Positions 6,080-27,900 of a stretch of 32,000 nt of DNA are shown here, piece by piece; positions within the stretch are counted from its first letter, which is position 1, and each line of letters opens with the position of its first letter. Below the pieces are notes generated by a model. That model was given only the letters and a program-made list of their open reading frames with translations, had not been told where the DNA came from and did not search any database. A program made the translations under genes and the position numbers. Where the stretch lies: positions 780,001-812,000 of the forward strand of contig NZ_CP017260.1 of NCBI RefSeq assembly GCF_001735745.1, in the 5' to 3' direction. This DNA comes from Formosa sp. Hel1_33_131. GTDB taxonomy: Bacteria > Bacteroidota > Bacteroidia > Flavobacteriales > Flavobacteriaceae.

Positions 6080-6337
6080 TTATTTAGCTCTATCAATGAT
6101 TTCTACTAGTCTCCAACATTTAGATTTACTTAAGGGTCTTGTTTCCATGATCCTTACAGTATCACCTTCGTTGCAGTCGTTTTGCTCGTCGTGTGCTACG
6201 TACTTTTTAGTCTTTAGCACGAACTTTCCGTACATAGGATGTTTTACTTTTTTCACTTCAGAAACCACTATTGATTTCATCATTTTGTTACTTGTAACAA
6301 CGCCTACACGTTCTTTTCTTAAATTTCTTTTTTCCAT
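6080..6337 (-). CDS. rpsQ: 30S ribosomal protein S17
   Basis: [32 protein letters not shown]. Confidence 0.95.
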
Positions 6338-9551: not shown

Positions 9552-10181
9552 TTATTTACTTAAATTCGTTTCAATATTCTTTAAAGCGCTTTCAAAAAGC
9601 ACTACTTGATTCGCGTTTAATATTTTATAAGTACTTATTTCTGAGTCTATTAAAACTTCAGAGCCCTTTAAATTCCGCGAGGACAAATATACATTATTAT
9701 TTGAGCCACCCAAGACAAATAAAGACTTTTTGCTATCAAGGTTTAAGGCCTTTAATACAGCTGTAAAGTTCTTTGTTTTTGGAGTGTCAAATGTAAAGTC
9801 TTCTATAACCGTAATTGATTTTTCAGAAGCTTTTATTGTAAAGGCCGACTTTCGTGCTAAACGCTTTACATTTTTATTTAACTTGAAGCTGTAGTTTCTA
9901 GGTCTTGGACCGAACATGCGACCACCACCTCTAAAAACACCAGACTTGATACTTCCCGCACGGGCTGTACCAGTTCCTTTTTGCTTCTTGATCTTTCGAG
10001 TACTTCCCGAAATCTCAGCTCTTTCTTTTGACTTGTGCGTTCCTTGACGTTGGTTAGCAAGATATTGCTTAACATCTAGGTAAACCGCATGATTGTTTGG
10101 CTCTATAGCAAATACATCGTTAGAAAGGTCTGCCTTTCTACCTGTATCTTTTCCGTTTAAATCTAAAACTGCTACTTTCAT
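9552..10181 (-). CDS. rplD: 50S ribosomal protein L4
   Basis: 209 aa, QGTHKSKERAEISGSTRKIKKQKGTGTARAGSIKSGVFRGGGRMFGPRPR. Its start overlaps the rplC stop (TAATG). Confidence 0.95.
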   Translation of the reverse strand: MKVAVLDLNGKDTGRKADLSNDVFAIEPNNHAVYLDVKQYLANQRQGTHKSKERAEISGSTRKIKKQKGTGTARAGSIKSGVFRGGGRMFGPRPRNYSFKLNKNVKRLARKSAFTIKASEKSITVIEDFTFDTPKTKNFTAVLKALNLDSKKSLFVLGGSNNNVYLSSRNLKGSEVLIDSEISTYKILNANQVVLFESALKNIETNLSK

Positions 10182-10798
10182 TATTTCTGAATGATTAAAT
10201 AAGCGTTTTTAGGACCAGGAACACATCCTTTGATCACAAGTAGATTTTTTTCAGTTACTACTTTTAAAACTCTTAAATTTTGAACTTTAACTGTGTCGGT
10301 TCCCATACGTCCTGCCATTTTCATTCCTTTGAAAACTCTAGCTGGATACGAAGCCGCACCAATAGATCCTGGTGCACGTAAACGGTTGTGCTGTCCGTGA
10401 GTCGCTTGACCCACACCTGCAAATCCATGACGTTTTACAACCCCTTGAAATCCTTTACCTTTTGAAGTTCCAGAAACATCAACAAATTCGCCTTCGGCAA
10501 AATGCTCTACTGTTATGGTGTCTCCTAATTTGTACTCCTCATCAAATCCTTTAAATTCCGCGACTTTTCTCTTAACAGAAGTACCTGCTTTTTTGGCGTG
10601 ACCTAAGTCAGCTTTCGTAGCACTTTTCTCTGTCTTGTCATCGAAACCAAGCTGAAGGGCTGAATAGCCATCAACTTCTTCGGTTCTGACTTGGGTAACA
10701 ACGCATGGCCCAACTTCTATAACGGTACATGGCATATTTTTACCATTCGCGTCGAAGATGCTGGTCATTCCGATTTTTTTTCCTATTAACCCAGACAT
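10181..10798 (-). CDS. rplC: 50S ribosomal protein L3
   Basis: [15 protein letters not shown]...[15 protein letters not shown]. Unusually, rpsJ does not directly precede it. Confidence 0.95.
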
Positions 10799-10830
10799 AT
10801 TTATATATTTATTAATTAACTCTTTTTATT

Positions 10831-10863
10831 CCAAAACAAAGGGTCAAAATACGTTTCAACCCT
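10831..10863 (-). promoter_or_regulatory. Hairpin plus U-tract in the rplC leader (attenuator or terminator candidate)
   Basis: Minus-strand RNA AGGGUUGAA-ACGUAU-UUUGACCCU (10840-10863) forms a 9-bp stem that includes two G.U pairs. These pairs form only on the minus-strand transcript. UUGUUUUGG follows the stem. The element lies 143 nt after the stop of the 1272-aa gene and ends about 32 nt before the rplC ATG. Confidence 0.35.
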
Positions 10864-10972
10864 GAATTGTATTTTTTCCGTTTTTCCCTTGCACTCAGCT
10901 TGGGACATGTAAATCGCTGATTTTCAGCAATTATATCAAAAATTAAGGTGGTGACCTATGTTTTTCGAGCTG

Positions 10973-11005
10973 CAAATTTAGATAAATTTAATCTATTCAC
11001 CTAAA
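10973..11005 (-). promoter_or_regulatory. Candidate Bacteroidota-type promoter for rplC and the downstream ribosomal genes
   Basis: The minus strand reads TAAATTTG (10973-10980), an exact match to the -7 consensus TAnnTTTG. The -33 element 21 nt upstream is TTTA (11002-11005) rather than TTTG. Confidence 0.3.
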
Positions 11006-14000
11006 TTATTTAGAAATTATTTTAAATGCGCCTACACTTCCTTCTGTTTTGAGAATACAGATATAAAAGGTGTTGGATGGAATTGTATGACTTAGGCGAA
11101 TGGTTTCACTCGTTCCAATCTGTTGATTTGGTTTATCGATGAGGCGTTTTCCGGTAAGATCAAAAAGATAAACATCGGTATTTTTTGGAGCCTTTGAAAT
11201 ATTTTTAATTATAAGTTGTTGATTGTCGATCAAAACAGTAAAGTCGGGTGTTAGGTCTGAAATATCAGAAGGCTCAAATCCAAGGGTACTTGTTATAAGG
11301 TGGTTTATATAGTAATCTTGCACTTTTTGAATCCAAAAATGATCGTCTGTCAATGTCGCTCCAGGAGCCACTGGATCTCCAATTCCATCGGTACTGTCTC
11401 CTACACCAGCTCCCATAAGCACTAGTTTCACACCTATATCATTGAGTTCTTCAAAATGATTTCCGAAAGTGACATGTTTACTAGTGGGGTTAGAAATTAA
11501 CTTTGGATCGTTATGTTTGTTTTGAGAAAAATAATCAAACCGTGCTTGATCATTTGAAAAATCGATTTCATCGCCAAAGAAAAAAGGGGATGCAGAATCT
11601 TCATAATATTTTGAAGTATTTGGGAGTGTTGCAAAGTTGGTGCCGGTGTACTCATTAATAGTTGTAGAGCCGTTTATGTGTCCTACGGTAATTTGCCATA
11701 ATATAACATGAACCCCAGCTTCTTCAAATAAAGCCCTGACAAAAGCGAAGTAATTGAGCCAGTGGTCATTATTCCAAAACCAAGTCCAAGAAGATGGATC
11801 GGCAGGGTCGCTTGCATTGCTATAACCCAACGCATCGAGACCATATTTATCTATGGAAATAAAATCTGCATTATGGCTCATGATCCCCATTCTTTCACTA
11901 TAACGATAAATATCAATTGCGGTCTGTTTTATCTTTTGTAGCTGCGTTTGAAAATCACCACCTCCAACTCCGCTAACATTGTCTGTTTCTCTAATAATTC
12001 CGCGGACTCCTGCAACATTCGGCTTTGCCCATAAGTTCATTTGCCACCCAAATTCTAAATTCAAATTATCATCAATTCGTTTTTTATTGATTTCAAAGTT
12101 GATGCGTTCTACAAGCGATTTAAGGGTTCCAGCATTGGTTCCAATCGTTGTTGCACCTACAGCAGTTGCCAAGGTTTCAGGTTCTGAATTTTGTTGCATA
12201 TACCCTAAGAAATCGGGCTCAAAAATGACTCCAAAAAACTCATCGCCTACAATGTCTCTTACTTGATTTAAAAACAGCTCTAAGTTCTCAAAATAGGCTG
12301 TCATATAGGTAGGAGACTGAATGTGTTCTAGATTTGTAGTGTATGATTCTCCTCCATCAGGGATGTTATAAAATATAAAAACAGGCATCAGCCCCATCTT
12401 TAGACTGTTTCTTGCAAACTTCATGACTCTATCTGGTTGCCATGTGTTCCAACCGATTAATGGCCCTCCATTTATATACGTATATCGAACGTCCATTCGA
12501 TTGTTGAGCATTAAATTAGTGTTGTTGATGCCGTTATTAAAGAAGTTTACATCGTCGGGGATATCTTCAGAGACAGAGCCTATAGAAATATGAGTGGGGT
12601 ATCTAGGCACGGTGCCATCTGCATTATCAATTCGGAGTCCGATGTAATACTTGTCGCCATCGGATGTTGTGATTTCTAGACCGGTTCTCCCTGGATTATT
12701 GGAGTTGACGGTTAGTTTAGAATTTGCAAAAGAAAACTGAGTCAGTGTTAAATCCCGTGATTTGACACTTGTAATGGTTTTATCAAAAGTAAAAACTTTG
12801 GTAACACCTTCTAAACCTTTAAGTTGATAGGGCAAATTGGCAAATAGAATCGACTCTTTAGAAGGGTCTATTATTTCATATTTTAAATACACATAATTAG
12901 AAGTCCCCATATCATCTGTAATTCCTAATCTTAAATTAGTGATTCCATATTGAGAAGGCGTCCAAGAAATAGAGGTTGCCGTGGCGCTAGCAGAAGATGT
13001 GATCGTTGTGAATTCATCGTATAAGGATATGCTTTGTATCGGTCGATCTGTTTGGCTGGCTGTAAAATGAATGACTATGGGGGTAAAATTTAATTGAAAA
13101 AACCTTGAATCAGATTCTGGAGTTGTTAATGCAATGTTTGGAGGCTGGTTCTTCGCCACTTTAATAGCTCCTATAAGTTCGGAACTTAAATTAATACTAT
13201 TTGTACCTTCTATTCTAATATTGTAGTCTGTGTAAGCATCTGGTATAAAATCGTAGGTGTATTGATTATTTGCACCAAGGGTCATGTCAAAAGACTGAAA
13301 TGTGCTTTGGCTAAATTTTTTGATGAATACTTTTGTAGTGCTAATTGGAAAATCAACATCTACAATTGTGGCTAAAATATTGATGGTCTGCAGAGTGGGT
13401 TGTATAAAAGTTTTAGCACCTTCAAAACTTGAGGTTAATACTGGTGGTTTTACACAAATTCCTAAAAAAACATAGGCATCAGATTGGTCTGGAGTCACAG
13501 TTCCAACAATAGGGTAGGATGTTCTATACAAGCCTTCATTATACACTACATTTACATTTCCTACATAATTATCCGGTTTGGACACCCAATCTATAAAGTC
13601 ATCACAATTGGTTTGAATTGTTAAATTGGCTGGGACACAAGTACCTATATTTGTCCATAAAGCATTTGTGTTGGGTGGATTTCCGCCACTAGTTACATAG
13701 GCTGTGTTTTCGTATATAAATCCATTATAATAAACTGTGCTAGGAGTCCCTGAGGTAAATGGGTAGTTTCTTGTACTATACCAATTTGGCGCCGCACAAT
13801 TTGAATTATAGGCTTCGAGGCTAAAAACGACAGTTGCTATATTAGCGTTTTCATCTTCAACAAAAGCCGTAATTGTGGTGATTCCATCTAGAGCTGGCGT
13901 CCAAGAGGCTCTATAGTTATTATTGACATAGCTCGCATATACAGCTTGTGAATTAGCTGTTGTTTTATAATAGACCTTTTTTGGTGGTAAATTCCCGTTT

Positions 14001-14824
14001 ACTTGGGCATTAAAAACTAAACTGATGGGTTGGCTCGCTGTATAGTAGGAGAGACTTCCATCTGCTGGAGAAACCAAACTAATAGAGGGTGGCACTTGTC
14101 TGTTAATAATAATTGAAGCATTATAAAACCCCTCTTTATTAGATTGATTGGTCGCTTTAAAAACTAAGGTGTATGCGCCATAGGTTGTAGGAAGCCAATT
14201 ATAATCATAAGTACCAGCTGTAACTGTTGATTCGGAAAGTACTGTACTTACAACATCCACTCCGTCTTTTTGAATTGTAATTAAGACCTCTGTAATATCA
14301 ACCCCGAAATCTTGAACTGTAGCAGTTGCTAAAATATTTTGAAGCGGATCCATCGTATAGTTTTGTGAGGCCGAGATATTTGATGTGACTGTTGGTGGCT
14401 TCACACAAACACCTTCAAAAGTATACGCATCATGTGAATCTGGTCTCACATCTATATTAATATAATATTTAGCTTTATATAACCCATTATTATAACTTAC
14501 CAGGGCATCTGTTGGAAAGCCGGTTGTGGCACCAGGTTGTGTAACCCAAGCGGTCGCAGACGCACAATCTGCATCCGAAGCAACAGGGACAACACTGCTG
14601 GTACAAGCCCCTAGTAACGTCCAAGCAGGATTTACATCTGGTGCGGCAGTATTAGCGTTCACATACCCTGCGTTTCTGTAAACGTTATTAGTATGATATA
14701 CATGATATCCGATCGAATAGTTTCTGGTTGCATCCCAGACAGGGACTCCGCAATCATTTCCAAATTGGGCAAATGTAAAATAACTCACAAACAGAAATAC
14801 CAAAGAGATAAAAGATGTTTTCAT
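11006..14824 (-). CDS. Secreted multidomain carbohydrate-active protein, 1272 aa. Order of parts: signal peptide, 2x[CBM5/12-like - CBM5/12-like - Ig-like - Ig-like], beta-sandwich linker, GH6-like domain, T9SS C-terminal sorting domain.
   Basis: N-terminal signal peptide MKTSFISLVFLFVSYFTFAQ. There are four Cys-bounded W/Y-rich modules of about 50 aa, for example CGVPVWDATRNYSIGYHVYHTNNVYRNAGYVNAN...NPAWTLLGAC. The C-terminal domain carries FYNIPDGGES / VIFEPDFL / LEFGW / GAGVGDSTDG motifs. The tail is Por-type (DVYLFDLTGKRLID...FYICILKTEGSVGAFKIISK). Confidence 0.85.
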   Translation of the reverse strand: MKTSFISLVFLFVSYFTFAQFGNDCGVPVWDATRNYSIGYHVYHTNNVYRNAGYVNANTAAPDVNPAWTLLGACTSSVVPVASDADCASATAWVTQPGATTGFPTDALVSYNNGLYKAKYYINIDVRPDSHDAYTFEGVCVKPPTVTSNISASQNYTMDPLQNILATATVQDFGVDITEVLITIQKDGVDVVSTVLSESTVTAGTYDYNWLPTTYGAYTLVFKATNQSNKEGFYNASIIINRQVPPSISLVSPADGSLSYYTASQPISLVFNAQVNGNLPPKKVYYKTTANSQAVYASYVNNNYRASWTPALDGITTITAFVEDENANIATVVFSLEAYNSNCAAPNWYSTRNYPFTSGTPSTVYYNGFIYENTAYVTSGGNPPNTNALWTNIGTCVPANLTIQTNCDDFIDWVSKPDNYVGNVNVVYNEGLYRTSYPIVGTVTPDQSDAYVFLGICVKPPVLTSSFEGAKTFIQPTLQTINILATIVDVDFPISTTKVFIKKFSQSTFQSFDMTLGANNQYTYDFIPDAYTDYNIRIEGTNSINLSSELIGAIKVAKNQPPNIALTTPESDSRFFQLNFTPIVIHFTASQTDRPIQSISLYDEFTTITSSASATATSISWTPSQYGITNLRLGITDDMGTSNYVYLKYEIIDPSKESILFANLPYQLKGLEGVTKVFTFDKTITSVKSRDLTLTQFSFANSKLTVNSNNPGRTGLEITTSDGDKYYIGLRIDNADGTVPRYPTHISIGSVSEDIPDDVNFFNNGINNTNLMLNNRMDVRYTYINGGPLIGWNTWQPDRVMKFARNSLKMGLMPVFIFYNIPDGGESYTTNLEHIQSPTYMTAYFENLELFLNQVRDIVGDEFFGVIFEPDFLGYMQQNSEPETLATAVGATTIGTNAGTLKSLVERINFEINKKRIDDNLNLEFGWQMNLWAKPNVAGVRGIIRETDNVSGVGGGDFQTQLQKIKQTAIDIYRYSERMGIMSHNADFISIDKYGLDALGYSNASDPADPSSWTWFWNNDHWLNYFAFVRALFEEAGVHVILWQITVGHINGSTTINEYTGTNFATLPNTSKYYEDSASPFFFGDEIDFSNDQARFDYFSQNKHNDPKLISNPTSKHVTFGNHFEELNDIGVKLVLMGAGVGDSTDGIGDPVAPGATLTDDHFWIQKVQDYYINHLITSTLGFEPSDISDLTPDFTVLIDNQQLIIKNISKAPKNTDVYLFDLTGKRLIDKPNQQIGTSETIRLSHTIPSNTFYICILKTEGSVGAFKIISK
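11009..11248 (-). other. T9SS C-terminal sorting domain (type A-like) of the 1272-aa protein
   Basis: The last ~80 aa follow the pattern V-x-hydrophobic-F-D-x-x-G-K/R..., then a GxY/FY-hydrophobic strand, then a short basic C-terminus. This is typical of Por_Secre_tail domains. Confidence 0.6.
11291..12604 (-). other. GH6-like (distorted alpha/beta barrel) putative catalytic domain, residues ~741-1178
   Basis: The motif order resembles GH6. YNIPDGGE (819-826) matches YDLPDRDC. VIFEPDFL (EPD at 869-871, nt 12212-12220) matches IEPDSL. The Tyr-to-Glu spacing is 50 aa, the same as I recall for Hypocrea jecorina Cel6A. LEFGW (923-927) matches LDAGH. GAGVGDSTDG (1138-1147) matches PGGECDG. The comparison is from memory, with no alignment run. 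Confidence 0.4.
12860..13798 (-). repeat. Copy 2 of an in-frame ~315-aa module (CBM-CBM-Ig-Ig), residues 343-655
   Basis: CAAPNWYSTRNY...GTC, then CDDFIDWVSKPDNY...GIC, then VKPPVLTSS..., then NQPPNIALTTP... This runs parallel to copy 1. Confidence 0.7.
13799..14752 (-). repeat. Copy 1 of an in-frame ~315-aa module (CBM-CBM-Ig-Ig), residues 25-342
   Basis: CGVPVWDATRNY...GAC, then CASATAWVTQPG...GVC, then VKPPTVTSN..., then RQVPPSISLVSP... The two copies are diverged at protein level and are not a DNA-level perfect repeat. Confidence 0.7.
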
Positions 14825-14854
14825 TTTAGAAGAAATTGAGGGTTAGGTTTGGGG

Positions 14855-17800
14855 TTACTTTTTAAGGATTTTTTTATAAAATATACCAGACTCCGTTTTT
14901 AGTTCCATTATATAAAGGGTACTTTCAAAGGCACTTAAATCGATACTAGAAGTGTCGGGGTTTAATTTATGATATAACCTATTACCTTTGATATCGAAAA
15001 TATTTATTTCGTTGATTTTGTGTGGAGATTTAATTGTTATACTGTGTTCTAAAGGGTTTGGATAGACTTTTGGCACTTCACTCTTAACTTGGTCATCAAC
15101 ACTGAACGTTGAACTAAAATAATTGAAATAATCTGTAGAGAATTCATACGCAGAGGCACAATTGGCTGCCGCATCCCAGTTAACAGACCATGTCATCACC
15201 CCTCTTAAACCTGGATGTGGGCCATTTTGCAATGTGTAACTCCTCCCTGAAAAGGTTGTTCCAAACCTCAAATAACCCAAGGCTTTGATCGTCTCTGAAG
15301 GTTGTAAATATCCTCCGGCAGGTGCCGCTGCTGGGCACGCTGGAATACCAACCATAATTTTTGAGGCTGGTAATCCCGGAAAATTAAATCCTGTTGAAGC
15401 TACATTAAAACCTGTGATTAACATATCTGACATAGACGTTAGAAAATCGGGGGTTGCTTGAGAATACGCTTGTCCATCTAATGCAGTGACAGATCCCGTA
15501 TTATAAAGTTGCACCATCACTAAATCTAATTCAGAACGCAAGTTATGAATCACTGGTAAAAAAGCTCCAGCCGTATTGGTATATGTTGAGCCCCCAACCT
15601 GAACGTAAAAGGTTTCAGGAGCACATGTTAAAATAAGATTAGCTCCATAATGTGCCTTTAGTTCTTTAAAAGCATCTACTACATTTTTAAGTTTTGGAAA
15701 CGCAGAGATTCCTGTATATGAAAAATCGGTTAAGGCGCCAGCCCCGAAATCCATAGAACCTCCTTCAAAATCTAAGTCAATACCATCAAAACCATATTCA
15801 TCAATAATGTCTTTCAGCCCTTGAACAAATTCATTTTTTTGTGCAACAGTACTTAACTCTACATGACCATTTTGCCCTCCTATGGATACAATTACAGGGA
15901 TACCTTGACTTCTCAAACTATTAATGTCATCCTTAAGCAGCTGTTTATCATAAACCCCATTCGTTAGATATCTGGGTGAGTTAATTGTTAACTGAGGCGT
16001 GTACCCATTTTGACCAACTGTTTCTATAAATGAATACATCACTACATTATACTTTGAAGTTAACATATCCCTAAAATACAAGAATGGTGCTGCTGTATTT
16101 TCCCAAGAGTGAGCATAGCCTAAAATAATATTCCCACTAGGTAGCGGCACAAATGGAGAATCGATAATATTTAGGGTCTTGACAAGACTCACTGCCCCCC
16201 CATCATTATCTGTAGCCGTAATTGTAAGTGGATATGCTTGGTGATTGGTGGGCGTAAAACTATATGTAAATGTATTGTTGGCTCCAGATGACATACTTGT
16301 CGTTGTGCCATCAATTGTAATTGAAACGGAAGCTATCGTTCCGTCTGTGTCTGTCACGGTAGTCTGTATTGCTATGGGTTGGAAGCCTGAATTTTGACTA
16401 ATATTCGTATTTACAGGAGTGTCCCATACAATCGTTGGCAATACATTGGGGCAATTGGTTCCCGTACAATTTAAAGTAAATTGAAACGTCTCTGTGGCAG
16501 TTTCATTATTAGAGCTTTGAGCAGTCACCTTTAAGGTGTGTGAGGCATTGTAATCTGAGTCTTGTGGAGCCCAATTTGCTGAATATATATTTTGATTGTT
16601 TGTGTTTGCAATGGTGGTATTATCTATTTGAAAAGTAACGCTGTTTATTGTTGTAGAGCCATCGTCAAAACTTAAGCCCACCATAGCTTCTAAGTTTACA
16701 TTGGTTCCATAAGCATTCGCTAAAGTAGCTTGATTGGGCGCATTTATAGTGACCTCTGGCTTTACAAGTTGCGCATTGAAATTATATTCTTGGGCCATTG
16801 TGGTAATTGCTATGTTCGCTACACTTATAGGGTAGAAAACCGTATTATTATTATCATAATCATTTAATTTTAATGAATTAATAATATTATAACCATCTAA
16901 CTCCGTTTCGGTAAAGAAATACTCTCCATTAGCATTTGCAGTTTTAGGTATTTGTTTATAGCCATGAGTACTGTCGGTCCATGGTAATATTAAATTCAAC
17001 TTGGCACCAGCTACCGGGGTTATCCCGTTTTTTACCGTACCATATATGAGGCCTTTATTTTCCTCAAAATTGGCAATGCCATTTGCATTTAGCATACTAA
17101 AGCTGATGCTTGTAGGTTTAAATACGATGTTGTTTAAGCTAGGCGTCACTACATAATCATATCCTGCTGGAACATTGTTAAAAGTATAATTTCCACTAGA
17201 ATCCGTCATAGAATTATAAGTTTGACTGTTTCCTGTGAGCTGTAAGCTCACCCCTGACATCCCTGTATTTGCGGAGGTTACAATTCCTGAAATTGTATGA
17301 GAATTTCGTGTAGCTACTATTTCTTGATTTGTCTGGTCAGAGTTAAAGTTGGTATATGTCAACGCAGTAAAGGAATAAAAATCTTTTTCTGCAGTTAGAG
17401 AATAGTCGAGGTTGTCTATTACAGAACTCAAATTAAAATTCCCATCGGCTGAAGTAAGGCGTTCTAATTCGACATTACTACTATTATTTAAGACAACATC
17501 AACATTGGCTAGTAGCTGTCCATTTTCCTTAACACTTCCTTGTATCATAGACGTTTGATCTGAACCTATAACATTTATAGTTTTATCCCCGTCAAACTCT
17601 AAAAGGGCATAACTCACATCACTAGGTAAAAAAGCATAGCTATTATAAGAATAATTTATAGTGTAAGCTAAAAAGCCTGTTTTGTTGTTAAAAATTACTT
17701 GGCCATTTGCAGCTGTAGTTTGAGATTCTAATACTGTACCACCGACATCTCGTAATTCTACTCTAATTCCTTGTATAGGCACAGCGGTTGGATTCTTAAA

Positions 17801-18244
17801 ATTCAATGTAATGCTGAATTCTGAGTTTACGAGGGTAGATTCTACAGTATCTAAAAGACCGTTGGTAGAGTTTCGAGCATCTTGAGAAAGCTCCCATATC
17901 ATAACACCCCCCAAGTTTTGTGACAATGCATACTTAACTTTTAAATCTATGGATTGAGTATCTTCATAGCTGATAAACTTTTGTTGAGTGGGGTTATAAA
18001 GGTAAGGAACAAGAGCATCAACATGCCAACGTCGTTCCCAACCAGCTATAGCGGCAGCAGTTGAAACTGCAAGTGGATTTGTTGGGTCTAGAAAATGATG
18101 TGGATTCGTTGCTCTTCCTTGAAATAAATCACAAAAATCGATAGCTCCCGTTGTTTCACAATTATAATTAGCAATATCATCCCAAGTTCCTACTGGAGGC
18201 TCCGGCAAACTACACGCTGGATTCGTTGTTCTTGGGGCACTCAC
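14855..18244 (-). CDS. Downstream fragment of a ChiA-like chitinase. It holds the C-terminal third of GH18 domain 1, CarboxypepD_reg-like and Ig-like repeats, the complete GH18 domain 2 and a T9SS CTD.
   Basis: The ORF opens with an internal GTG. Its first ~137 aa (...LKVKYALSQNLGGVMIWELSQD...) are the terminal strands of a GH18 barrel. The second catalytic motif DGIDLDFE is at nt 15764-15787. The tail is KVYPNPLEHSITIKS...INIFDIKGNRL...LYIMELKTESGIFYKKILKK. Confidence 0.85.
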   Translation of the reverse strand: MSAPRTTNPACSLPEPPVGTWDDIANYNCETTGAIDFCDLFQGRATNPHHFLDPTNPLAVSTAAAIAGWERRWHVDALVPYLYNPTQQKFISYEDTQSIDLKVKYALSQNLGGVMIWELSQDARNSTNGLLDTVESTLVNSEFSITLNFKNPTAVPIQGIRVELRDVGGTVLESQTTAANGQVIFNNKTGFLAYTINYSYNSYAFLPSDVSYALLEFDGDKTINVIGSDQTSMIQGSVKENGQLLANVDVVLNNSSNVELERLTSADGNFNLSSVIDNLDYSLTAEKDFYSFTALTYTNFNSDQTNQEIVATRNSHTISGIVTSANTGMSGVSLQLTGNSQTYNSMTDSSGNYTFNNVPAGYDYVVTPSLNNIVFKPTSISFSMLNANGIANFEENKGLIYGTVKNGITPVAGAKLNLILPWTDSTHGYKQIPKTANANGEYFFTETELDGYNIINSLKLNDYDNNNTVFYPISVANIAITTMAQEYNFNAQLVKPEVTINAPNQATLANAYGTNVNLEAMVGLSFDDGSTTINSVTFQIDNTTIANTNNQNIYSANWAPQDSDYNASHTLKVTAQSSNNETATETFQFTLNCTGTNCPNVLPTIVWDTPVNTNISQNSGFQPIAIQTTVTDTDGTIASVSITIDGTTTSMSSGANNTFTYSFTPTNHQAYPLTITATDNDGGAVSLVKTLNIIDSPFVPLPSGNIILGYAHSWENTAAPFLYFRDMLTSKYNVVMYSFIETVGQNGYTPQLTINSPRYLTNGVYDKQLLKDDINSLRSQGIPVIVSIGGQNGHVELSTVAQKNEFVQGLKDIIDEYGFDGIDLDFEGGSMDFGAGALTDFSYTGISAFPKLKNVVDAFKELKAHYGANLILTCAPETFYVQVGGSTYTNTAGAFLPVIHNLRSELDLVMVQLYNTGSVTALDGQAYSQATPDFLTSMSDMLITGFNVASTGFNFPGLPASKIMVGIPACPAAAPAGGYLQPSETIKALGYLRFGTTFSGRSYTLQNGPHPGLRGVMTWSVNWDAAANCASAYEFSTDYFNYFSSTFSVDDQVKSEVPKVYPNPLEHSITIKSPHKINEINIFDIKGNRLYHKLNPDTSSIDLSAFESTLYIMELKTESGIFYKKILKK
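14858..15073 (-). other. T9SS C-terminal sorting domain (type A, YPNP-containing) of the chitinase
   Basis: Residues ~1058-1129 of the downstream ORF. The VYPNP motif plus the IFDIKGNRL and LYIMELK strands are hallmarks of Por_Secre_tail. Confidence 0.7.
15110..16138 (-). other. GH18 catalytic domain 2 (class III / hevamine-like subtype)
   Basis: IILGYAHSWEN...VIVSIGGQNG...FDGIDLDFEGG...LILTCAPE...VMVQLYN...LRGVMTWSVNWD. Confidence 0.8.
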
Positions 18245-19184
18245 TTTCGTAGAGCCCAGGATTATTGGGATCTACTCCAGTTGCCGCAACACCTTCAAAT
18301 ATTTTTCCATAAAACGGAACTCCCATGACAAACTTATTGGCTGGGATGCCAACTTCTATTAGGTATAGCTTTATTAATTCATCTAATACTTGATTTCTTC
18401 CAGATGGATTGTGTAAGGGATCATTTACATTATCGCCCCCAAACAATGGCGCATTAAAACATGTTTTATCATACCAATTCCCTCCAAAGTCATAGCCAAA
18501 ACAAGTAACGAAATTACAGTAATCCATGATGTTGGTTGTCATGTTGTTTGCTGCTTGATTATTAGGCCCTATAAACTGACTTGCAGCATTTGTTACATTG
18601 TTCCCCATCGCAATAGAAAGCTCTTTGGCTTGCATACCGTTCGAGTCAAAAGCAGCTCTTATATCTTTCAATAGGAAAACAAGGTTTTTATGGTCATTGG
18701 TTGTGTGTGGTTGTGCAGGAATTACTAAACCATTAACTTTTTCTTGGCCTTCGGTACCTCCCGTAATTGGGAATTCCCAATCAAGATCAAAACCATCAAT
18801 CCAAGGATACAAAGTCATGAAATCAACCATGCTTTGTGCGAAAGTTGTTCTTGCATTTTGGCTCGCCGCTATTTCAGGAAAATGTTGAGACTTTGTCCAC
18901 CCCCCTACAGAAATTAGAATTTTTAAATGCGGATTCCTCTCTTTTAATATTTTTAACTCTCCAATATTTCCTTTTACAGCAGCATTTGAAAGCAAGTTAT
19001 TTTCATCATGCCCAGTATCCGCCCAAGGATCTAAACTTTGTATAGAAGCTGAATCGTTGGAAGTGTCATAAACTGGATTGTAAAAAGCATATAGTACATG
19101 CGTAAGTTTATCAGCTTCTACATCTATAACATTAAAATCACGCGCATAAATGGCCCATTGAGCAAAGTAGCCAATCACTATTTT
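17834..19184 (-). other. GH18 catalytic domain 1 (bacterial ChiA-like subtype), interrupted by the frameshift
   Basis: IVIGYFAQWAIY...LISVGGW...DGFDLDWEFP (nt 18774-18797)...PFYGK in the upstream ORF. The domain continues as ...YEDTQSIDLKVKYALSQNLGGVMIWELSQD in the downstream ORF. Confidence 0.8.
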
Positions 19185-19313
19185 GGAGTGTTTTGGACCT
19201 GTTGTTTGATAATTTAAAAAATCGGCTGAAGAAGGGGTGTTGTCATTGTTCTGAAAAGAAGTTATACTCGTTACTGAAAGCAACAAAATAACACATAAGG
19301 TAAAATGTTTCAT
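18210..19313 (-). CDS. Upstream fragment of the ChiA-like chitinase: signal peptide plus the N-terminal two-thirds of GH18 domain 1
   Basis: Signal peptide MKHFTLCVILLLSVTSITSF. GH18 catalytic motif DGFDLDWE. The ORF ends in a shifted frame (...GLYESECPKNNESSV followed by a stop) and overlaps the next ORF by 35 nt. Confidence 0.85.
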   Translation of the reverse strand: MKHFTLCVILLLSVTSITSFQNNDNTPSSADFLNYQTTGPKHSKIVIGYFAQWAIYARDFNVIDVEADKLTHVLYAFYNPVYDTSNDSASIQSLDPWADTGHDENNLLSNAAVKGNIGELKILKERNPHLKILISVGGWTKSQHFPEIAASQNARTTFAQSMVDFMTLYPWIDGFDLDWEFPITGGTEGQEKVNGLVIPAQPHTTNDHKNLVFLLKDIRAAFDSNGMQAKELSIAMGNNVTNAASQFIGPNNQAANNMTTNIMDYCNFVTCFGYDFGGNWYDKTCFNAPLFGGDNVNDPLHNPSGRNQVLDELIKLYLIEVGIPANKFVMGVPFYGKIFEGVAATGVDPNNPGLYESECPKNNESSV

Positions 19314-19373
19314 AAGCAGGTTTTTTAGTTCTGGGGAGAACTGTGGTTAGTAATATATTGTGGCATAATATAC

Positions 19374-19413
19374 AAAAACAGTGCCAAATATAAAATTTAG
19401 CACTGTTTTTTTT
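19374..19413 (-). terminator. Rho-independent-type hairpin (symmetric, bidirectional) just downstream of rpsJ
   Basis: AAAAACAGTGC - 15-nt loop - GCACTGTTTTTTTT. The GC core is 6 bp (19379-19384 with 19400-19405) and can extend through A/T pairs. A T-run follows the stem on both strands. It lies 46 nt after the rpsJ stop and 61 nt before the chitinase ATG. Confidence 0.5.
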
Positions 19414-19458
19414 ATTCAAAAATGTAGGTGTTAGTTTCAAAATCGACACCTGTCGTAA

Positions 19459-19764
19459 TTATACTTTAATTTCTACTTCTACACCACTCGGTAATTCAAG
19501 TTTCATCAAAGCATCAATTGTTTTGGATGAAGAACTATAAATATCTAGTAGTCTTTTGTAAGAGCTTAATTGAAATTGTTCTCTCGATTTTTTGTTAACG
19601 TGTGGAGAACGTAATACAGTGAAAAGTTTTTTGTGGGTTGGTAATGGGATTGGACCCGTTACGATAGCACCTGTACTTTTTACGGTTTTTACAATCTTAT
19701 CAGCAGACTTGTCTACTAAGTTATGATCGTAAGACTTTAATTTTATTCTGATTTTTTGACTCAT
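19459..19764 (-). CDS. rpsJ: 30S ribosomal protein S10
   Basis: [20 protein letters not shown]...[31 protein letters not shown]. Confidence 0.95.
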
Positions 19765-19775
19765 GTTCTTAACTT

Positions 19776-21902
19776 TTAAGATTGGATTCCTTTAGCTTCT
19801 TTAATAACTTCTTCTGAGATGTTTGAAGGTGTTTCAGCATAGTGTGAAAATTCCATAGTGGAAGTTGCACGACCAGATGATAGCGTTCTTAAGGTGGTTA
19901 CATAACCAAACATTTCTGAAAGAGGCACTGTAGCTTTTACAGTTTTTGCTCCTGCTCTATCGCCCATGTCACTTACTTGTCCACGACGACGGTTAAGGTC
20001 TCCTACAATATCTCCCATATTTTCCTCAGGAGTAATAACTTCTAATTTCATGATTGGTTCCATGATCACTGCTTTGGCTGCTTTGGCTGAATTTTTAAAT
20101 CCAAGCTTCGCGGCTAATTCAAAAGAGAGTTGATCCGAATCCACATCGTGGTAAGATCCATCTTTTAAAGTCACTTTTACAGCATCCACTTCGTAACCAG
20201 CAAGCGGCCCATTGACCATTGCCATTTTGAATCCTTTTTCAATAGAAGGAATAAATTCTTTAGGTACATTTCCACCCTTGATCGCAGATACAAACTGAAG
20301 TCCTACAACACCTTCGTCTGCTGGCTCAATTGTAAATACGATGTCCGCAAATTTTCCACGACCACCAGATTGTTTCTTGTAAACTTCTCTGTGATTAGCC
20401 GATTGTGTAATTGCTTCTTTAAATTCAACTTGTGGTTGACCTTGATTTACTTCTACTTTAAATTCACGACGTAAACGATCTACAATGACATCTAAGTGCA
20501 ATTCACCCATTCCTGAAATAATCGTTTGCCCTGAAGCTTCGTCAGAACGAACTGTAAACGTTGGATCTTCTTCAGCTAATTTACCAAGACCGATACCTAG
20601 TTTATCAACATCTGCTTTGGTCTTTGGTTCCACTGCGATACCAATTACGGGATCCGGGAAGTCCATAGATTCTAAAACAATAGGATGTTTTTCAGCTGAT
20701 AATGTATCTCCTGTTTTGATGGATTTAAATCCAACAGCAGCTCCAATATCTCCAGCTTCGATATAGTCAATTGCATTTTGCTTGTTTGCATGCATTTGGT
20801 AGATACGTGAAATACGTTCTTTTTTACCAGAACGGTTATTTAACACATACGACCCTGCATCTAAACGACCAGAATAAACACGGAAAAAAGCTAAACGTCC
20901 TACGAAAGGATCGGTTGCAATTTTAAATGCTAGTGCCGCAAACGGCTCTTTTACATCTGGCTTGCGTATTTCTTCTAATTCAGTATCTGGATTCATACCC
21001 ACAATACCTTCTTTGTCTGTTGGAGCAGGTAAATAACGACATACAGCATCTAAAAGAAACTGAACTCCTTTATTTTTAAATGCGGAACCACAGATCATAG
21101 GAATGATGGCCATGTCCATAACAGCAGCTCTCAATGCATTGTGCACTTCTTCTTCTGTAATAGAATCTTCATCTTCCATGAATTTCTCTAAAAGATCTTC
21201 ATCGTAACTTGCTACTTCTTCAATTAGCTTCGCACGAAGGATTTTTGCTTCTTCTTTAAGATCATCAGGAATATCAACAACATCAAAAGTTGCTCCCATT
21301 CCTTCTTCATGCCAGATAATAGCACGGTTCTTAACTAAATCTACAATACCTTTAAAATCTTCTTCATCACCAATATTCAAAACAATAGGCACTGCATTAG
21401 AGCCTAACATTTCTTTTACTTGGCTACAAACCATCATAAAATCAGATCCTTGACGGTCCATTTTATTGACGAAACCAATTCTTGGCACTTTATAGTTGTC
21501 GGCCAGTCTCCAGTTTGTTTCAGATTGAGGCTCAACACCATCAACTGCACTAAACAAGAATACTAAACCATCAAGCACACGTAAAGATCGATTTACTTCA
21601 ACAGTAAAATCAACGTGGCCTGGAGTATCAATAATATTAAAATGGTAGTCCTTCGCATCTTCCGTAGGCTTGCCATTTTCTGTAGGGAATTCCCATTCAC
21701 AGGTGGTTGCAGCAGACGTAATAGTAATACCACGTTCTTGCTCTTGTTCCATCCAGTCCATTGTTGCAGCACCATCATGTACTTCACCAATTTTGTGAGA
21801 AACTCCTGTATAATAAAGAATACGCTCCGTTGTAGTGGTTTTTCCTGCATCAATGTGCGCAGCAATCCCAATATTTCTTGTGAATCTTAAATCTCTTGCC
21901 AT
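19776..21902 (-). CDS. fusA: elongation factor G
   Basis: 708 aa. G1 motif [19 protein letters not shown], then DTPGHVDF and NKMDR. Confidence 0.97.
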
Positions 21903-21908
21903 CTCTAA

Positions 21909-22385
21909 TTAAAATCTAAAGTGTGAGAATGCTTTATTCGCTTCAGCCATCTTGTGAGTGTCTGTACGTTTTTTAACAGCAGCACCTTCTTCTTTAGCCG
22001 CAGCTAAAACTTCAGAGGCTAACTTTAAAGCCATAGATTTTTCATTACGTTTTCTTGAAAAACTAATCAACCACTTCATCGCAGTTGATATTTTACGATC
22101 TGGTCGTATTTGCATTGGAATTTGGAAGGTGGCACCTCCAACACGACGGCTACGTACTTCTACGTGTGGCATCACATTAGATAGAGCATCTTTCCAGATT
22201 TCTAAAGCTGTTTTTTCTTCGTCAGTTTTCTTTTCGTCAACGATTTCAATCGCATCATAAAAAATTTTGAATGCGGTTGACTTTTTGCCATCCCACATCA
22301 TCATGTTAACGAAACGTGTTACCAATTGATCGTTAAATTTCGGATCTGGCAACAGCGGTCTTTTTTTCGCTTGTTTTTTTCTCAT
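21909..22385 (-). CDS. rpsG: 30S ribosomal protein S7
   Basis: 158 aa, [24 protein letters not shown]...[16 protein letters not shown]. Confidence 0.95.
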
Positions 22386-22949: not shown

Positions 22950-24638
22950 GTGACGCGTCAATTGAAATTATTAGTTAGGATTTTATGTGTTTTTGGAGTT
23001 TTTAGTTGGAGTACTGCACAGCAGCTTCAATTAAAAATGATCAGCAATGACTCTATTGAAACAAACACAATCAACACTATAGGGTATCCGAAAACTTTTG
23101 AAAACTTCGCGGCACTAGAAGCTCAAGTTGAATCCTTTAAAGACCAATTGTACAAACGCGGTTATATCGAAGCGCGCGTTTTTGAGATTTCTCAAACCCC
23201 ACCTTTAATCATTGCCAAGCTATCCCTTGGTCCAAAATACGAATCTATTAGACTCTATGCCGATAAAACCCTTTTTGAGTTTTTAGAATTGGAAGGTGTC
23301 AAGAATCTTGAAAGTACTCCTTATTATATTGTAGAAGTTTCAGCGCTCGAAACACTCCTCAATTCACTCACTGAGTTTTTAACCGCAAAAAGCTATCCCT
23401 TTGCTTCCGTTTCATTGAAAAAGATAAAGCCTATTGGCAAGTCCACACTCAGAGCAGATTTATATGTAGAAACAAAACAGTCCCGACAACTTCAATCTGT
23501 GGAGATTAAAGGGTATGAGAAATTCCCCCGTTCATTTATCAAACACTACTTAGGCATTAAAAAAAATACGCCTTTTGACCTTAAAGCGATTCAAACTAAA
23601 ACCGAAGCACTGAACCAGCTTCGGTTCACCAAACAACTTCGACCCGCAGAAGTACTATTTACACAGGATACGACGCGTGTCTATTTATATTTAGAAAAAA
23701 TAAAAAGCAATCGTTTTGATGGGTTTTTGGGATTTGGTTCAGATGAGACGACCGGAAATTTAGATCTCAATGGCTACCTCAATCTAAACTTAGTAAACAA
23801 TTTAAATTTTGGAGAATCTTTTCGTCTTAATTATAGGAGTGATGAAAATGACCTGAAAACATTTGAGGCACAACTCACCCTCCCCTACTTATTTAAAACC
23901 CCCATCGGTAGTGAGCTAGAATTAAATATATTTAAAAAAGACAGCACCTTCACCACAGCCGAACAAGCGGCCAGTCTGTATTACCAACTCAACCCAAAAC
24001 AGAAAGTCTTTTTGGGGATTCGGTCCACGCAGTCGAATGCTTTATTGCCAGAAACGATTAGCGATGTACGTGACTATAAAACGAGTGCATACGAACTCAA
24101 ATACACCTACCAAGAACTCACACCCCAAAATTTGCTATTTCCTCTAAGCAACGCATTAGAGTTTCGTTTGTCTAAATCTAATCGAAAAACTATAGACACA
24201 AAAACGAATCAAATAGCGTATTTTTTAAAGGCTTCTAAAATTTTTAACCTGAATCGTAAGAATAGTTTTTATCTGCGACTTCAGGTGCAGGGCATTGATT
24301 CAGAAAACTATTTATTAAACGAACTCATCCGGTTTGGAGGCATCAACTCCGTCAGAGGATTTGAAGAAAATAGCATCAATGCTACAAATTTAGGGGTTTT
24401 GGCTTCCGAATACCGTTACCAACTAAGCTCTAGTCTTTATATACACTCTGTCATAGATGCCGCCTATTTTGAAACACCTACACAATCGAATCAAAAACTC
24501 TATGGGTTTGGGTTTGGATTTGGACTCCTTACAGAAGCGGGTCTCTTGAGATTCAACTTAGCCAATGGGAAAACAGAAGAACAAAACTTCAAGTTCTCGG
24601 ATTCTAAAATACACCTAAGCTTAACAGCTACTTTCTAA
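22950..24638 (+). CDS. Omp85-superfamily (TpsB/ShlB-like or BamA-like) outer-membrane beta-barrel protein
   Basis: 562 aa with signal peptide ...ILCVFGVFSWSTAQQ. It has an N-terminal POTRA-sized region and a C-terminal region of alternating amphipathic strands. It carries an L6-loop-type motif GGINSVRGFEENS and ends in a C-terminal Phe (LSLTATF). The start codon is non-ATG (GTG at 22950 or TTG at 22962), so the exact start is uncertain. Confidence 0.6.
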   Translation: MTRQLKLLVRILCVFGVFSWSTAQQLQLKMISNDSIETNTINTIGYPKTFENFAALEAQVESFKDQLYKRGYIEARVFEISQTPPLIIAKLSLGPKYESIRLYADKTLFEFLELEGVKNLESTPYYIVEVSALETLLNSLTEFLTAKSYPFASVSLKKIKPIGKSTLRADLYVETKQSRQLQSVEIKGYEKFPRSFIKHYLGIKKNTPFDLKAIQTKTEALNQLRFTKQLRPAEVLFTQDTTRVYLYLEKIKSNRFDGFLGFGSDETTGNLDLNGYLNLNLVNNLNFGESFRLNYRSDENDLKTFEAQLTLPYLFKTPIGSELELNIFKKDSTFTTAEQAASLYYQLNPKQKVFLGIRSTQSNALLPETISDVRDYKTSAYELKYTYQELTPQNLLFPLSNALEFRLSKSNRKTIDTKTNQIAYFLKASKIFNLNRKNSFYLRLQVQGIDSENYLLNELIRFGGINSVRGFEENSINATNLGVLASEYRYQLSSSLYIHSVIDAAYFETPTQSNQKLYGFGFGFGLLTEAGLLRFNLANGKTEEQNFKFSDSKIHLSLTATF

Positions 24639-24900: not shown

Positions 24901-27900
24901 ATGAAAACAAAATTTAATGTAATGCTCTCGCTGTTACTGGCGTTTGTAATTCAAATTTCTTTTGCACAGCAAAAGGATGTTTCAGGAACAGTTACTGATA
25001 CTGACGGTATGCCCTTAATAGGCGCCACTGTTATTATTTCAGGAACTTCTTCAGGAACAACAACAGATTTTGATGGGAAATTCAGTATCAGCTCTTCAGT
25101 TGGTGATACTTTAACCATCAGTTATCTAGGTTATACCGATCAGGTTGTAGCCGTCAATGACACAAGCAGTATAGCTGTTGTCATGCAAGAAGATGACTCT
25201 CAACTTGATGAAGTTGTAGTCACAGCTCTTGGAATTTCAAGAGACAAAAAGTCTGTTGGTTATGCTTCTCAACAAATAGGTGGTGATGCAGTATCTACTG
25301 TTAAAGTAGATAACATTGCGAGCTCACTTTCTGGAAAAATTAGTGGTGTGCAAATCAAAACCAATAACAACTTTGGTGGATCTGCAAACTTTCTAATTAG
25401 AGGGGTTAGTTCTTTAACAGGAAACAACCAACCTTTATTTGTTGTCGATGGAATTCCAATATCTAACAACCTTAACAATTCAGCCCAACAAACAGGCGGT
25501 CGTAAAGGGTATGATTATGGAAATGCTGCAATGGACATCAATCCAGATGACGTAGATTCTATCAACATCTTGAAAGGTGCTGCTGCATCTGCAATTTACG
25601 GTTCACGTGGAGCCAATGGTGTTGTTATTATTACAACTAAAAAGGGAGGACAAGGGAAAACGAAAGTTACTGTAACTTCTAGTGCACAGATTGGTTCTAT
25701 TGACAAAAGTACTTTTATTAAGTACCAAGATCAGTATGGAGCAGGATATGGTACGTATTACGGTTCAACAGGATATTTCGAAGACTGGGATATGACTGGC
25801 GACGGAAATGACAACTTAGTCGTACCAACTTACGATGATGCTTCTTTTGGAGCGCCTTTAGATGGTTCACTCGTTTACCAATGGGATTCTTTTGTTCCTG
25901 AACACAGAAACTTTGGAAAAGCGACTCCTTACGTTGCTGGACAAACGACTCCAGTAGATTTTTTCGAAACAGCAACTCAATTTAACAACTCTGTGAGTAT
26001 CTCTGGTGGAGATGACAAAACGAGTTACAGATTAGGGTATACCAATTCTGAAATTAGTGGGTACATGCCAAATTCTAAATTAAACAAAAACAGTTTAAAC
26101 TTTAGTGGAACCTTAAAAGTGAATGACAAAATCACTGTTGGTTCTTCTGCTAACTATTTAGTTCAGCAAACTGTCGGAAGAAATTCTACAGGATATGGTG
26201 ATAACTTAATGGCTCAGTTTAGACAATGGTGGCAAGTAAATGTTGACCTTAAAGATCAAGAAGATATCTTTAACAAGACAGGAAAAAACTACTCTTGGAA
26301 TAACGAAGGTGCACTTACAGGACCTGGTTCAGGTGGCGAACTTGTACCACATTACTGGGATAACCCTTACTGGACTCGTTACAAAAACTTCCAGTCAGAT
26401 GAAAGAAATCGTTTCTTTGGAAATGTTTTTGCAACACTTGAAATTAACGACTGGTTAAGCGTAACTGCTAAAGGAGCTGTTGATACTTATAATGAATTGA
26501 GAGAAGAGCGTAGAGCTATTGGTTCTGTTGCAACTCAGTTTGGTATTTTAGGTGATGATGAAGGATCAGGATACGATAGAGTAGACATCCTTTTCTCTGA
26601 GTATAACTATGATTTAATGTTCAACGTTAACAAGCAGTTAACTGATGATTTAAGTTTAGACGGTGTATTTGGAATTAATGTTAGAAAAGAAAGCTATAGC
26701 TACTTAAGAAATTCAACTGCTGGTGGCTTGGCAATTCCTAACATCTTTGCACTTTCTAATTCTTTAAGTTCAAATCCAAAACCGATTGAAAGCTTAAGAG
26801 AAAAGCAAGTGAACGGATATTACGCTCAAGCATCTTTGGGATATAAGAACATCTTATATCTAGATCTTACAGATCGTATTGATGTATCTTCAGCACTTCC
26901 ATCTGAAAATAACAGCTACAACTATTATGCTGCAAGTTCAAGTTTAATATTCTCTAAATTAGTGGATGTTGAATGGTTAAACTTTGGTAAATTAAGAGCA
27001 GGTTATGCAGAGGTAGGTAATGATTTACCAGCTGGAAACGTAAATGATACTTACTCTACTCTGAATAATTTCGGAAATGCAAGTTTGTTCTCTTATGGTT
27101 CCACAAAAAACAACGCAACTTTAAAGCCTGAAAGAACAAGGGAAATTGAAGTTGGTTTAGAAGCAAAAATGTTTAATAACAAAGTTGGGTTTGACTTATC
27201 TTGGTATAAGAAAAACACTGAAGACCAATTGATGCCTGCATCCGTAACAACTTCTACTGGGTTTTCAAACAGATGGGTAAATGCTGGAGAAATCCAAAAT
27301 AAAGGTGTTGAAATTGGCGCTTATGCAACTCCATTTGAAAATGACAACTTTAGCTGGGACGTCACTGTTAACTGGGCTAAAAATGAAAGTTTAGTCGTTG
27401 ATTTATATGGAGACCAAGAGAACTTACAATTAAACAGTTTTCAAGGTGGAATTTCAATCAATGCTACCGTTGGACAACCTTACGGTACGATTAGAGGAAC
27501 AGGATTCAACATGCATGAAAATGGTGAAAGAATCGTAAACTCTAGTGGATACTATGAAGCAGTTGCGGATCAAATCATTGGGGATGTAAATCCTGAATGG
27601 AATGGTGGTATCACAAATACATTCAAGTATAAAGACTTCAAATTATCTTTCTTGATTGATATTCAACAAGGTGGTGATGTATACTCTTTAGACATGCACT
27701 ACGGACAAGGTACTGGTTTACCAGACTTTACAACAGGAACTAACGATCTTGGAAACCCAATTAGAAACACACTCGCAAATGGTGGTGGTGTTATTCTTCC
27801 TGGTGTAACTGCAGATGGAGCTCCAAACACTACAAGAGCAAGAACAGATTATTATGGTGGAATTTGGTATTGGGGTAACTCTTCAAGAAACCCAGCTGAA

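Follow-up and report, generated by a model that had tools for sequence, protein, structure and literature searches.

Members of glycoside hydrolase family 6 (GH6, PF01341; e.g., T. fusca Cel6A (TfCel6A, 2BOD/1TML), Trichoderma reesei Cel6A (TrCel6A) and the metagenomic enzyme 6FAO) hydrolyse beta-1,4-glucan with inversion and have a distorted seven-stranded alpha/beta barrel. Their catalytic acid is the Asp of an EPD motif (TrCel6A D221, TfCel6A D117), the second Asp of a DRDC motif (TrCel6A D175, TfCel6A D79) acts as pKa modulator, the Tyr of a VxY(D/N)xP strand (TrCel6A Y169, TfCel6A Y73) distorts the sugar at subsite -1, and a WIKxPGE(S/C)DG strand holds a candidate for the catalytic base (TrCel6A D401, TfCel6A D265). 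Chitin is among the most abundant biopolymers, and to our knowledge its depolymerization by bacteria is currently credited to few glycoside hydrolase (GH) families, mainly GH18 and GH19, along with lytic polysaccharide monooxygenases. GH18 enzymes require an N-acetyl group at subsite -1. Here we describe a gene in a 32,000-nucleotide stretch of the Formosa sp. Hel1_33_131 genome (the window; contig NZ_CP017260.1, positions 780,001 to 812,000). The gene is complete (open reading frame (ORF) 11006..14824, minus strand) and encodes a secreted multidomain protein of 1272 amino acids (aa), in which residues 741-1178 (438 aa, 11291..12604, minus strand) form a GH6-like alpha/beta-barrel domain.

We predict that this domain is the catalytic unit of secreted glycoside hydrolases that make up an uncharacterised family, remotely akin to GH6 and acting on chitin or partly deacetylated chitin, a reading that we consider probable with real room for doubt. 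The substrate, the hydrolytic activity, its stereochemistry and the roles of individual residues are inferred. An earlier reading of the same DNA, made from the letters and their translations (the sequence-only reading), had proposed a divergent GH6-like domain. Its interpretation, kinship with GH6 in a chitin or chitosan context, is supported on both counts, and much of its description of the protein is borne out: the segment maps exactly to the coordinates above, the four motif strings it listed begin at residues 816, 866, 922 and 1136 (with 50 residues separating the first two), and the six residues it named (D823, E826, E869, D871, D1143 and D1146) are correctly numbered. As it had stated, the GH18 motif DxxDxDxE is lacking; DxDxE is likewise absent from the 1272-aa protein. 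The domain has no hit among Pfam, NCBIfam or PDB sequences, and the whole protein gives zero Pfam matches even at E <= 1.

The proposed relationship to GH6 was recovered by profile search of PDB sequences, Pfam scans of individual members, profile-profile alignment and structural search with two models. When a profile of the family was compared to all PDB sequences, the best match was the GH6 enzyme 6FAO (E 2.7e-4), with iPfFVfYNipdgges paired to IPILVVYNIPNRDCS and vvlEPDfLGY to IILEPDVLAL. Two Coprinopsis Cel6C entries came next, with weaker scores, and the remaining significant matches were CBM2 modules or phage tail proteins that aligned to accessory regions of full-length homologs (CBM, carbohydrate-binding module). 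PF01341 (Glyco_hydro_6) was the sole recurring catalytic family in a permissive per-member Pfam scan, in which 8 of 52 members matched it weakly (best E 0.0012). The domain of the Formosa protein did not match PF01341 even at E <= 10, and scores stayed below the Pfam gathering threshold.

Searches of the family against GH6 by hidden Markov model (HMM) versus sequence were uninformatively weak, so a profile-profile comparison was needed. For this we took the catalytic domains of 12 real GH6 enzymes out of annotated plasmid records; these replaced a collection made with a 99-aa fragment of 6FAO that had returned short fragments only. Using 114 family sequences, hhalign gave Prob 92.7%, P 4.2e-7 and a score of 57.6; using 290 sequences, the values were 95.0%, 3.7e-8 and 65.1. 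The 21 controls, GH6 alignments that had been either reversed (one) or shuffled by column (twenty), scored at most 20.0, versus 57.6 for the real one. The confident alignment comprises domain residues ~44-137, i.e., a strand and helix, the YNIP strand, a long helix and the EPD strand. The N-terminal half of the domain is distantly homologous to GH6. An AlphaFold model of residues 741-1178 (pLDDT 91.3, pTM 0.92), searched against PDB structures with Foldseek, had T. fusca Cel6A as its top match (E 2.8e-5; root-mean-square deviation (rmsd) 6.5 A over 300 columns; template-modelling (TM) score 0.34 by query and 0.50 by target). An independent model of P0053, a member with 42% identity (pLDDT 95.5), had the same top match (E 2.7e-6, rmsd 4.7 A over 282 columns).

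The sequence-only reading had aligned four motif pairs. Two of these lie in the significant region and are well above what chance would give: YNIPDGGES (residues 819-827, 12344..12370, minus strand), the counterpart of GH6 YNIPxRDC, and EPD (residues 869-871, 12212..12220, minus strand), the counterpart of GH6 EPD. Several real GH6 enzymes read YNIP(D/N/H)RDC where the family reads YNIPDGGE, and with these enzymes the family literally has the YNIP(D) strand motif in common. The third and fourth pairs (GWQMNLW with DAGHAGW, and GAGVGDSTDG with KPGGECDG) find no statistical support. Family and GH6 share an alpha/beta barrel, the order of the first two motifs, the helix between them and the EPD with its catalytic acid, and both are secreted and attached to CBMs. 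They differ in that identity is only ~10-12%, the family domain is longer (~430 versus ~280-360 residues), GG-E stands in place of the second Asp of DRDC, and the GH6 motifs YLDAGH, NVSNY, DTSRNG and WIKxPGE(S/C)DG are not recognisable. The family domain also has an insertion of ~85 residues with an invariant E-D pair, and its genomic partners are GH18, GH46 and chitin-binding modules rather than cellulases.

Conservation, counted over 189 non-identical members, indicates which parts of the GH6 active site are retained. E869-P870-D871 is invariant (189/189) and aligns with the GH6 EPD. Based on homology and on GH6 enzymology, we propose D871 as the general acid, equivalent to the catalytic Asp of GH6. 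Y819, aligned with the Tyr of the GH6 YNIP strand, is also invariant. The sequence-only reading had noted Gly followed by Glu at the second Asp of DRDC and took that Asp to be the canonical catalytic acid. The substitution is real (G825, Gly in 126 of 189 members; E826, 98% conserved), but the canonical acid is the EPD Asp, which is retained. Its suggestion of a remodelled active site was right in substance, in that the second Asp of DRDC is lost and the Asp of GE(C/S)DG is unconserved or replaced. D1143 and D1146, also put forward as active-site residues, are poor candidates: the former is kept in 25% of members (Ala is commoner) and the latter in 65%, and neither is likely to be essential.

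Residues invariant among the 189 members include Y819, E869, D871, D992, K993, D997, W1043, Q1044, N1051, E1075 and D1076. Lacking an obvious GH6 counterpart are the invariant polar residues D992/K993/D997 (in SIDKYGLD), W1043, Q1044, N1051 and E1075/D1076/S1077, the last three being part of a YEDS motif inside the ~85-residue insertion, which lies between strands 7 and 8. For the GH6 WIKxPGE(S/C)DG strand there are two competing alignments. The low-confidence extension of the hhalign alignment picks LWQLPVGHIN, which puts invariant N1051 at the position of the GH6 Asp. The alternative is LMGAGVGDSTDG, which puts D1146 there, and it is favoured when beta/alpha units are counted starting at the YNIP strand, since the family and, by its strand order, GH6 then each have six.

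The family is large and widely distributed. A word-indexed search found 184 relatives of the domain at 38-50% identity and three near-identical sequences. Their alignments run from residue 3 to residue 437 of the 438-residue segment, so the domain boundaries are accurate. An exhaustive HMMER search of 1.84 billion cluster representatives yielded 326 proteins at E <= 1e-3 (137 at E <= 1e-30), and scanning of species-representative genomes gave 223 confirmed matches. Members from Bacteroidota include those of Flavobacteriaceae (Formosa, Bizionia, Flavobacterium tructae, F. collinsii and F. poyangense) and others; the family also occurs in Planctomycetota, Verrucomicrobiota, Acidobacteriota, Desulfovibrionaceae, Gammaproteobacteria, one cyanobacterium and Clostridia (including C. 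perfringens, C. baratii and C. paraputrificum). No members were found on plasmids by tblastn. The best match is from an uncultured Formosa metagenome-assembled genome (MAG): the proteins are 96% identical, and 12.9 kb of DNA can be aligned at 91-93% identity; the 1272-aa gene is collinear with it (91% DNA identity). In many proteins the family domain is the only catalytic-type domain, and stand-alone members exist (P0053 and P0046).

Members bear only generic names in the source records ("hypothetical protein", "cellulose binding domain-containing" or "dockerin type I domain-containing"). We found no description of the family in Pfam (2025 copy), NCBIfam release 20 or PDB sequences, nor in NCBI, UniProt or JGI names. 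Full-text literature searches, by topic (GH6-like chitin enzymes and new families of chitinases) as well as by superfamily identifier and member accession, returned nothing on it. We regard it as a candidate for a new GH family that is a relative of GH6 and probably acts on chitin or chitosan; a very recent CAZy family could already cover it.

The chitin link of the family is strong, and extends beyond the single chitinase neighbour on which the sequence-only reading had drawn. GH18 domains with an intact DGxDxDxE motif lie within 10 kb of the family domain at 27 of 82 loci. At 14 of these a single ORF encodes the two, in either order and across several phyla, and at 13 more the GH18 is nearby. 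The family domain comes first in Planctomycetota, Verrucomicrobiota and the cyanobacterium, and GH18 comes first in one Flavobacteriaceae, one Pseudomonadales and one Desulfovibrio MAG. In Kolteria, Poriferisphaera, Chthoniobacter, a Spartobacteria MAG and a cyanobacterium, Pfam identified full GH18 domains (E 1e-85 to 1e-94) together with CBM2, CBM49, ChiA_N and Calx-beta within single family polypeptides. In the set of the 27 longest cluster representatives, GH18 is present in 12, CBM2 in 12, ChiA_N in five, GH5 in one and GH8 in one. CBM5/12 or ChiA_N is above threshold in other members, and fusions to CBM2 and dockerin also occur. At three Lachnospiraceae-type loci (L047, L051 and L063) a GH46 chitosanase gene lies immediately upstream of the family gene and encodes the same tail of CHB_HEX_C_1, Fn3_assoc and CBM5/12 modules, and in C. 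paraputrificum two dockerin-bearing GH18 genes are ~3.7 kb away. Clustering of the neighbours recovered only GH18- and CBM-containing proteins as recurrent partners; proteins with DUF1501, TPR and response-regulator domains were considered and set aside, as they look like lineage-specific synteny. In the window itself, Pfam confirms that the gene immediately upstream is a GH18 chitinase, as had been claimed. It is ChiA-like (14855..19313, minus strand), with two GH18 domains and a type IX secretion system (T9SS) C-terminal domain according to Pfam and to comparison with the Formosa MAG (L015), and also has CarboxypepD_reg and Big_7 modules.

Planctomycetota, Verrucomicrobiota and a cyanobacterium encode giant family proteins of 1400 to >4200 aa (L049, L059, L053, L058, L091 and L071), in which CBM2/CBM49 and ChiA_N are combined with the GH6-like domain, additional CBM2 and Calx-beta modules and, at the C terminus, GH18. 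These proteins are probably bifunctional, and the first of their catalytic domains has no Pfam model and is unnamed in the source annotations seen. Members from Desulfovibrio and Solidesulfovibrio (L014, L042, L044, L045 and L089), sulfate reducers that are not known to degrade polysaccharides, combine CBM2 with the family domain, and in one MAG a GH18 is fused as well. At the one locus of this group examined in detail (L014, Desulfovibrionaceae), no carbohydrate-active enzyme (CAZyme) neighbour is present.

Several observations weigh against a GH6-type chitin enzyme. The significant GH6 alignment spans only ~85 columns, and the C-terminal halves of the family and GH6 are not significantly alignable on their own (P 0.056). 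Foldseek TM scores are low for both models (0.31-0.34 by query, 0.46-0.50 by target), and both models have eight beta/alpha units, versus the seven-stranded barrel described for GH6. Neither the pKa-modulating Asp nor the base-candidate Asp of GH6 is conserved. Given these limits of the alignment and the Pfam result, the family is treated as a sister of GH6 and not as a member. Eight units would suit a generic (beta/alpha)8 triosephosphate isomerase (TIM) barrel unrelated to GH6, for example a retaining, clan GH-A-like glycosidase with E869 on strand 4 as acid/base, in which case YNIP and EPD would be convergent. The TIM barrels of GH1, GH5, GH10, GH26 and GH53 do come within about one log of the GH6 Foldseek E-values, with slightly higher query-normalised TM scores, and the "EP" at the end of strand 4 resembles the NEP motif of clan GH-A. 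We nevertheless regard such an origin as very improbable: the rmsd of these barrels is 9-14 A, versus 4.7-6.5 A for the GH6 matches, the sequence signals are all GH6-specific (no GH-A family appeared in the PDB profile search or the permissive Pfam scan, and hhalign reached P 3.7e-8 with clean controls), and the end of strand 7 reads W-Q, without a conserved Glu. That the domain is a non-catalytic module, binding or disrupting chitin to aid a fused or neighbouring GH18, is hardly credible. Activity is not known for any member, the GH6 auxiliary aspartates are lost, and CBMs always, and a real chitinase often, accompany the domain. However, a dozen polar or acidic residues, including the GH6 catalytic-acid motif, are strictly invariant across phyla, as is typical of enzymes, and many members, some of them stand-alone, have no other catalytic-type domain.

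On substrate, also, the context is not uniform. CAZyme neighbours are absent at many members (e.g., in Vallitalea and Desulfovibrio sp. TomC), and CBM2 and dockerin are equally compatible with cellulose. If the family had kept the ancestral GH6 substrate it would be a beta-1,4-glucanase or cellulase, and the chitin link would stem from substrates in which chitin and glucan are mixed (fungal walls, for example) or from CBM promiscuity. GH6 is indeed the closest known family, the commonest fused module is CBM2 (named "cellulose binding domain"), clostridial members are fused to dockerins, and one member each carries GH5 and GH8. We judge a cellulase distinctly unlikely, given that GH18 is the fusion partner in 12 of the 27 long members versus a single GH5, that CBM5/12, ChiA_N and the GH46 neighbour are specific to chitin or chitosan, that clustering of neighbours shows no recurrent association with cellulase families, and that YLDAGH and NVSNY, through which GH6 contacts the sugar, cannot be recognised in the family. 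CBM2 members bind chitin too, which also counts against it. Unlikely, though to be taken seriously, is an enzyme for chitosan or partly deacetylated chitin that cuts glucosamine (GlcN)-containing linkages which GH18 cannot process. Such an activity would complement the fused GH18, the adjacent GH46 chitosanases have accessory modules identical to those of the family proteins, and many invariant acidic residues (D992, D997, E1075 and D1076) could bind protonated amines. The three GH46 loci, however, are from related Lachnospiraceae and may therefore reflect one event in evolution only. In addition, acetylated crystalline chitin is the substrate suggested by CBM5/12, ChiA_N and GH18, and no sequence feature discriminates N-acetylglucosamine (GlcNAc) from GlcN.

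Returning to the favoured reading, a catalytic domain remotely akin to GH6 that acts on chitin or partly deacetylated chitin, we suggest the following mechanism. The protein would be exported by a signal peptide (Sec) and a T9SS C-terminal domain and tethered to crystalline chitin by its four CBM5/12-like modules. A beta-1,4-linked GlcNAc/GlcN chain would be held in the aromatic-lined cleft of the barrel and cleaved by a GH6-type single displacement, with inversion, in which D871 of the EPD acts as general acid and Y819 aids distortion of the -1 sugar. The water-activating side may have been rebuilt from D992/K993/D997, N1051 and E1075-D1076, in place of the aspartates of GH6 DRDC and GE(C/S)DG. 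Because both of these aspartates are unconserved, an inverting GH6-type mechanism is an extrapolation. The enzyme would serve as a partner of retaining GH18 chitinases, to which it is often fused.

GH18 chitinases such as those resembling Flavobacterium johnsoniae ChiA, in which two GH18 domains are joined to a T9SS C-terminal domain, share the ecological and genomic setting of the family and its accessory modules (CBM5/12, ChiA_N, CBM2, Ig-like and T9SS C-terminal domains), and the family domain is fused or adjacent to them. They belong to another barrel lineage, the 1272-aa protein lacks a PF00704 match along with DxxDxDxE, and they are retaining, with substrate assistance, versus the inverting mechanism proposed here. 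The proposed single displacement on beta-1,4 GlcNAc/GlcN polymers would be analogous to that of GH19 and GH46, but these have lysozyme-like alpha-helical folds, with no similarity to the family domain in sequence or fold.

With somewhat more doubt than belief, we advance the wider proposal that the domain is the founding member of a new GH family that forms a clan with GH6 and is the first GH6-type barrel, inverting, to cleave chitin or chitosan. It would then be a hitherto unrecognised part of bacterial chitinolytic systems in at least eight phyla, in synergy with retaining GH18 enzymes much like Cel6 and Cel7 on cellulose. A catalytic-type domain that is fused to GH18 in many phyla and has no Pfam or NCBIfam model suggests a missing activity in chitin turnover, and also that annotated "chitinases" hold some unassigned domain content. 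If a GH6-type scaffold was recruited to chitin, the substrate range of the fold would be extended. GH6 would gain a sister family helpful for the long-debated question of its catalytic base, because both auxiliary aspartates have been dispensed with. New enzymes would become available for chitin bioconversion, and the giant "chitinases" of planctomycetes and Verrucomicrobia would be bifunctional, with the family domain as their second catalytic domain.

Outside the barrel, the protein begins with a putative signal peptide, read from the translation (residues 1-20, MKTSFISLVFLFVSYFTFAQ; 14765..14824, minus strand). Four CBM5/12-like modules had been predicted, and this exact number was recovered by iterative jackhmmer in a small database, seeded with the Pfam-valid CBM_5_12 of locus L043. 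On the minus strand these are module 1 (residues 23-76, 14597..14758, domain E 3.5e-14), module 2 (residues 85-140, 14405..14572, 2.1e-9), module 3 (residues 341-396, 13637..13804, 1.9e-9) and module 4 (residues 404-457, 13454..13615, 1.8e-10). Pfam alone detects no CBM_5_12 in this protein, and orthologs at the position of module 1 match PF02839 below threshold (up to 25.8 bits versus a cut-off of 26.2). Self-BLAST found no internal repeats, a PDB sequence search with the N-terminal 720 residues was empty, and a homolog search with the first two modules returned one protein only.

Preceding the barrel is a module of ~85 residues (residues ~655-740, 12605..12862, minus strand), the upstream consensus of which was kept in alignments A1, A2 and A3. 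It is present in most family members, with weak matches to PF13629 (T2SS-T3SS_pil_N) in 21 of 52. It is probably a beta-sandwich and may belong to the catalytic unit rather than being a linker. The protein ends in a probable T9SS type A sorting domain (residues 1204-1271, 11012..11215, minus strand). Secretion by this system was also part of the sequence-only reading; in the protein itself TIGR04183 scores below the NCBIfam cut-off (E 2.6e-4, 20.9 versus 23 bits) and PF18962 is not matched in Pfam. Orthologs score clearly, and two of them (L025 and L027) match PF18962 at E 2e-10 to 2e-11.

On the plus strand of the window are genes for an Omp85/POTRA protein (22950..24638), a SusC-like/SusD-like pair (24901..28158 and 28170..29594) and a second SusC-like protein (from ~29862, running off the window end). 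No glycosidase gene accompanies them between 22950 and 32000. This putative polysaccharide utilisation locus was considered as a possible one for chitin and was not linked to the GH6-like gene, since its genes lie on the opposite strand, past the ribosomal genes, and include no CAZyme in view.

A frameshift in the N-terminal GH18 domain breaks the upstream GH18 gene into two ORFs (18210..19313 and 14855..18244). The cause is a 4-bp tandem duplication at ~18242-18245, which reads GAAAGTGAGTGCC versus GAA----AGCGCC in the Formosa MAG. In the MAG (L015, near position 6250) the GH18 gene has a different frameshift, in a poly-G run. The frameshift may be real pseudogenisation or an assembly error.

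The GH18 and GH6-like genes are located between rpsJ (~19459..19764) and rplC (10181..10798), within 10181..22385 on the minus strand of the window, so that the insertion lies inside the conserved ribosomal cluster rpsG-fusA-rpsJ-rplC-rplD (L015 and L017-L021 were also examined). In five other Flavobacteriaceae species (Bizionia and MAGs), the GH6-like gene is found alone, between fusA and rplC. The cluster is an unusual place for the gene of a secreted enzyme, and apparently a stable one. Terminator-like hairpins, identified by consensus match only, are present on the minus strand just after rpsJ (19374..19410, with a 16-bp stem) and between the end of the GH6-like gene and rplC (10840..10863), which suggests that the inserted genes form an insulated transcription unit.

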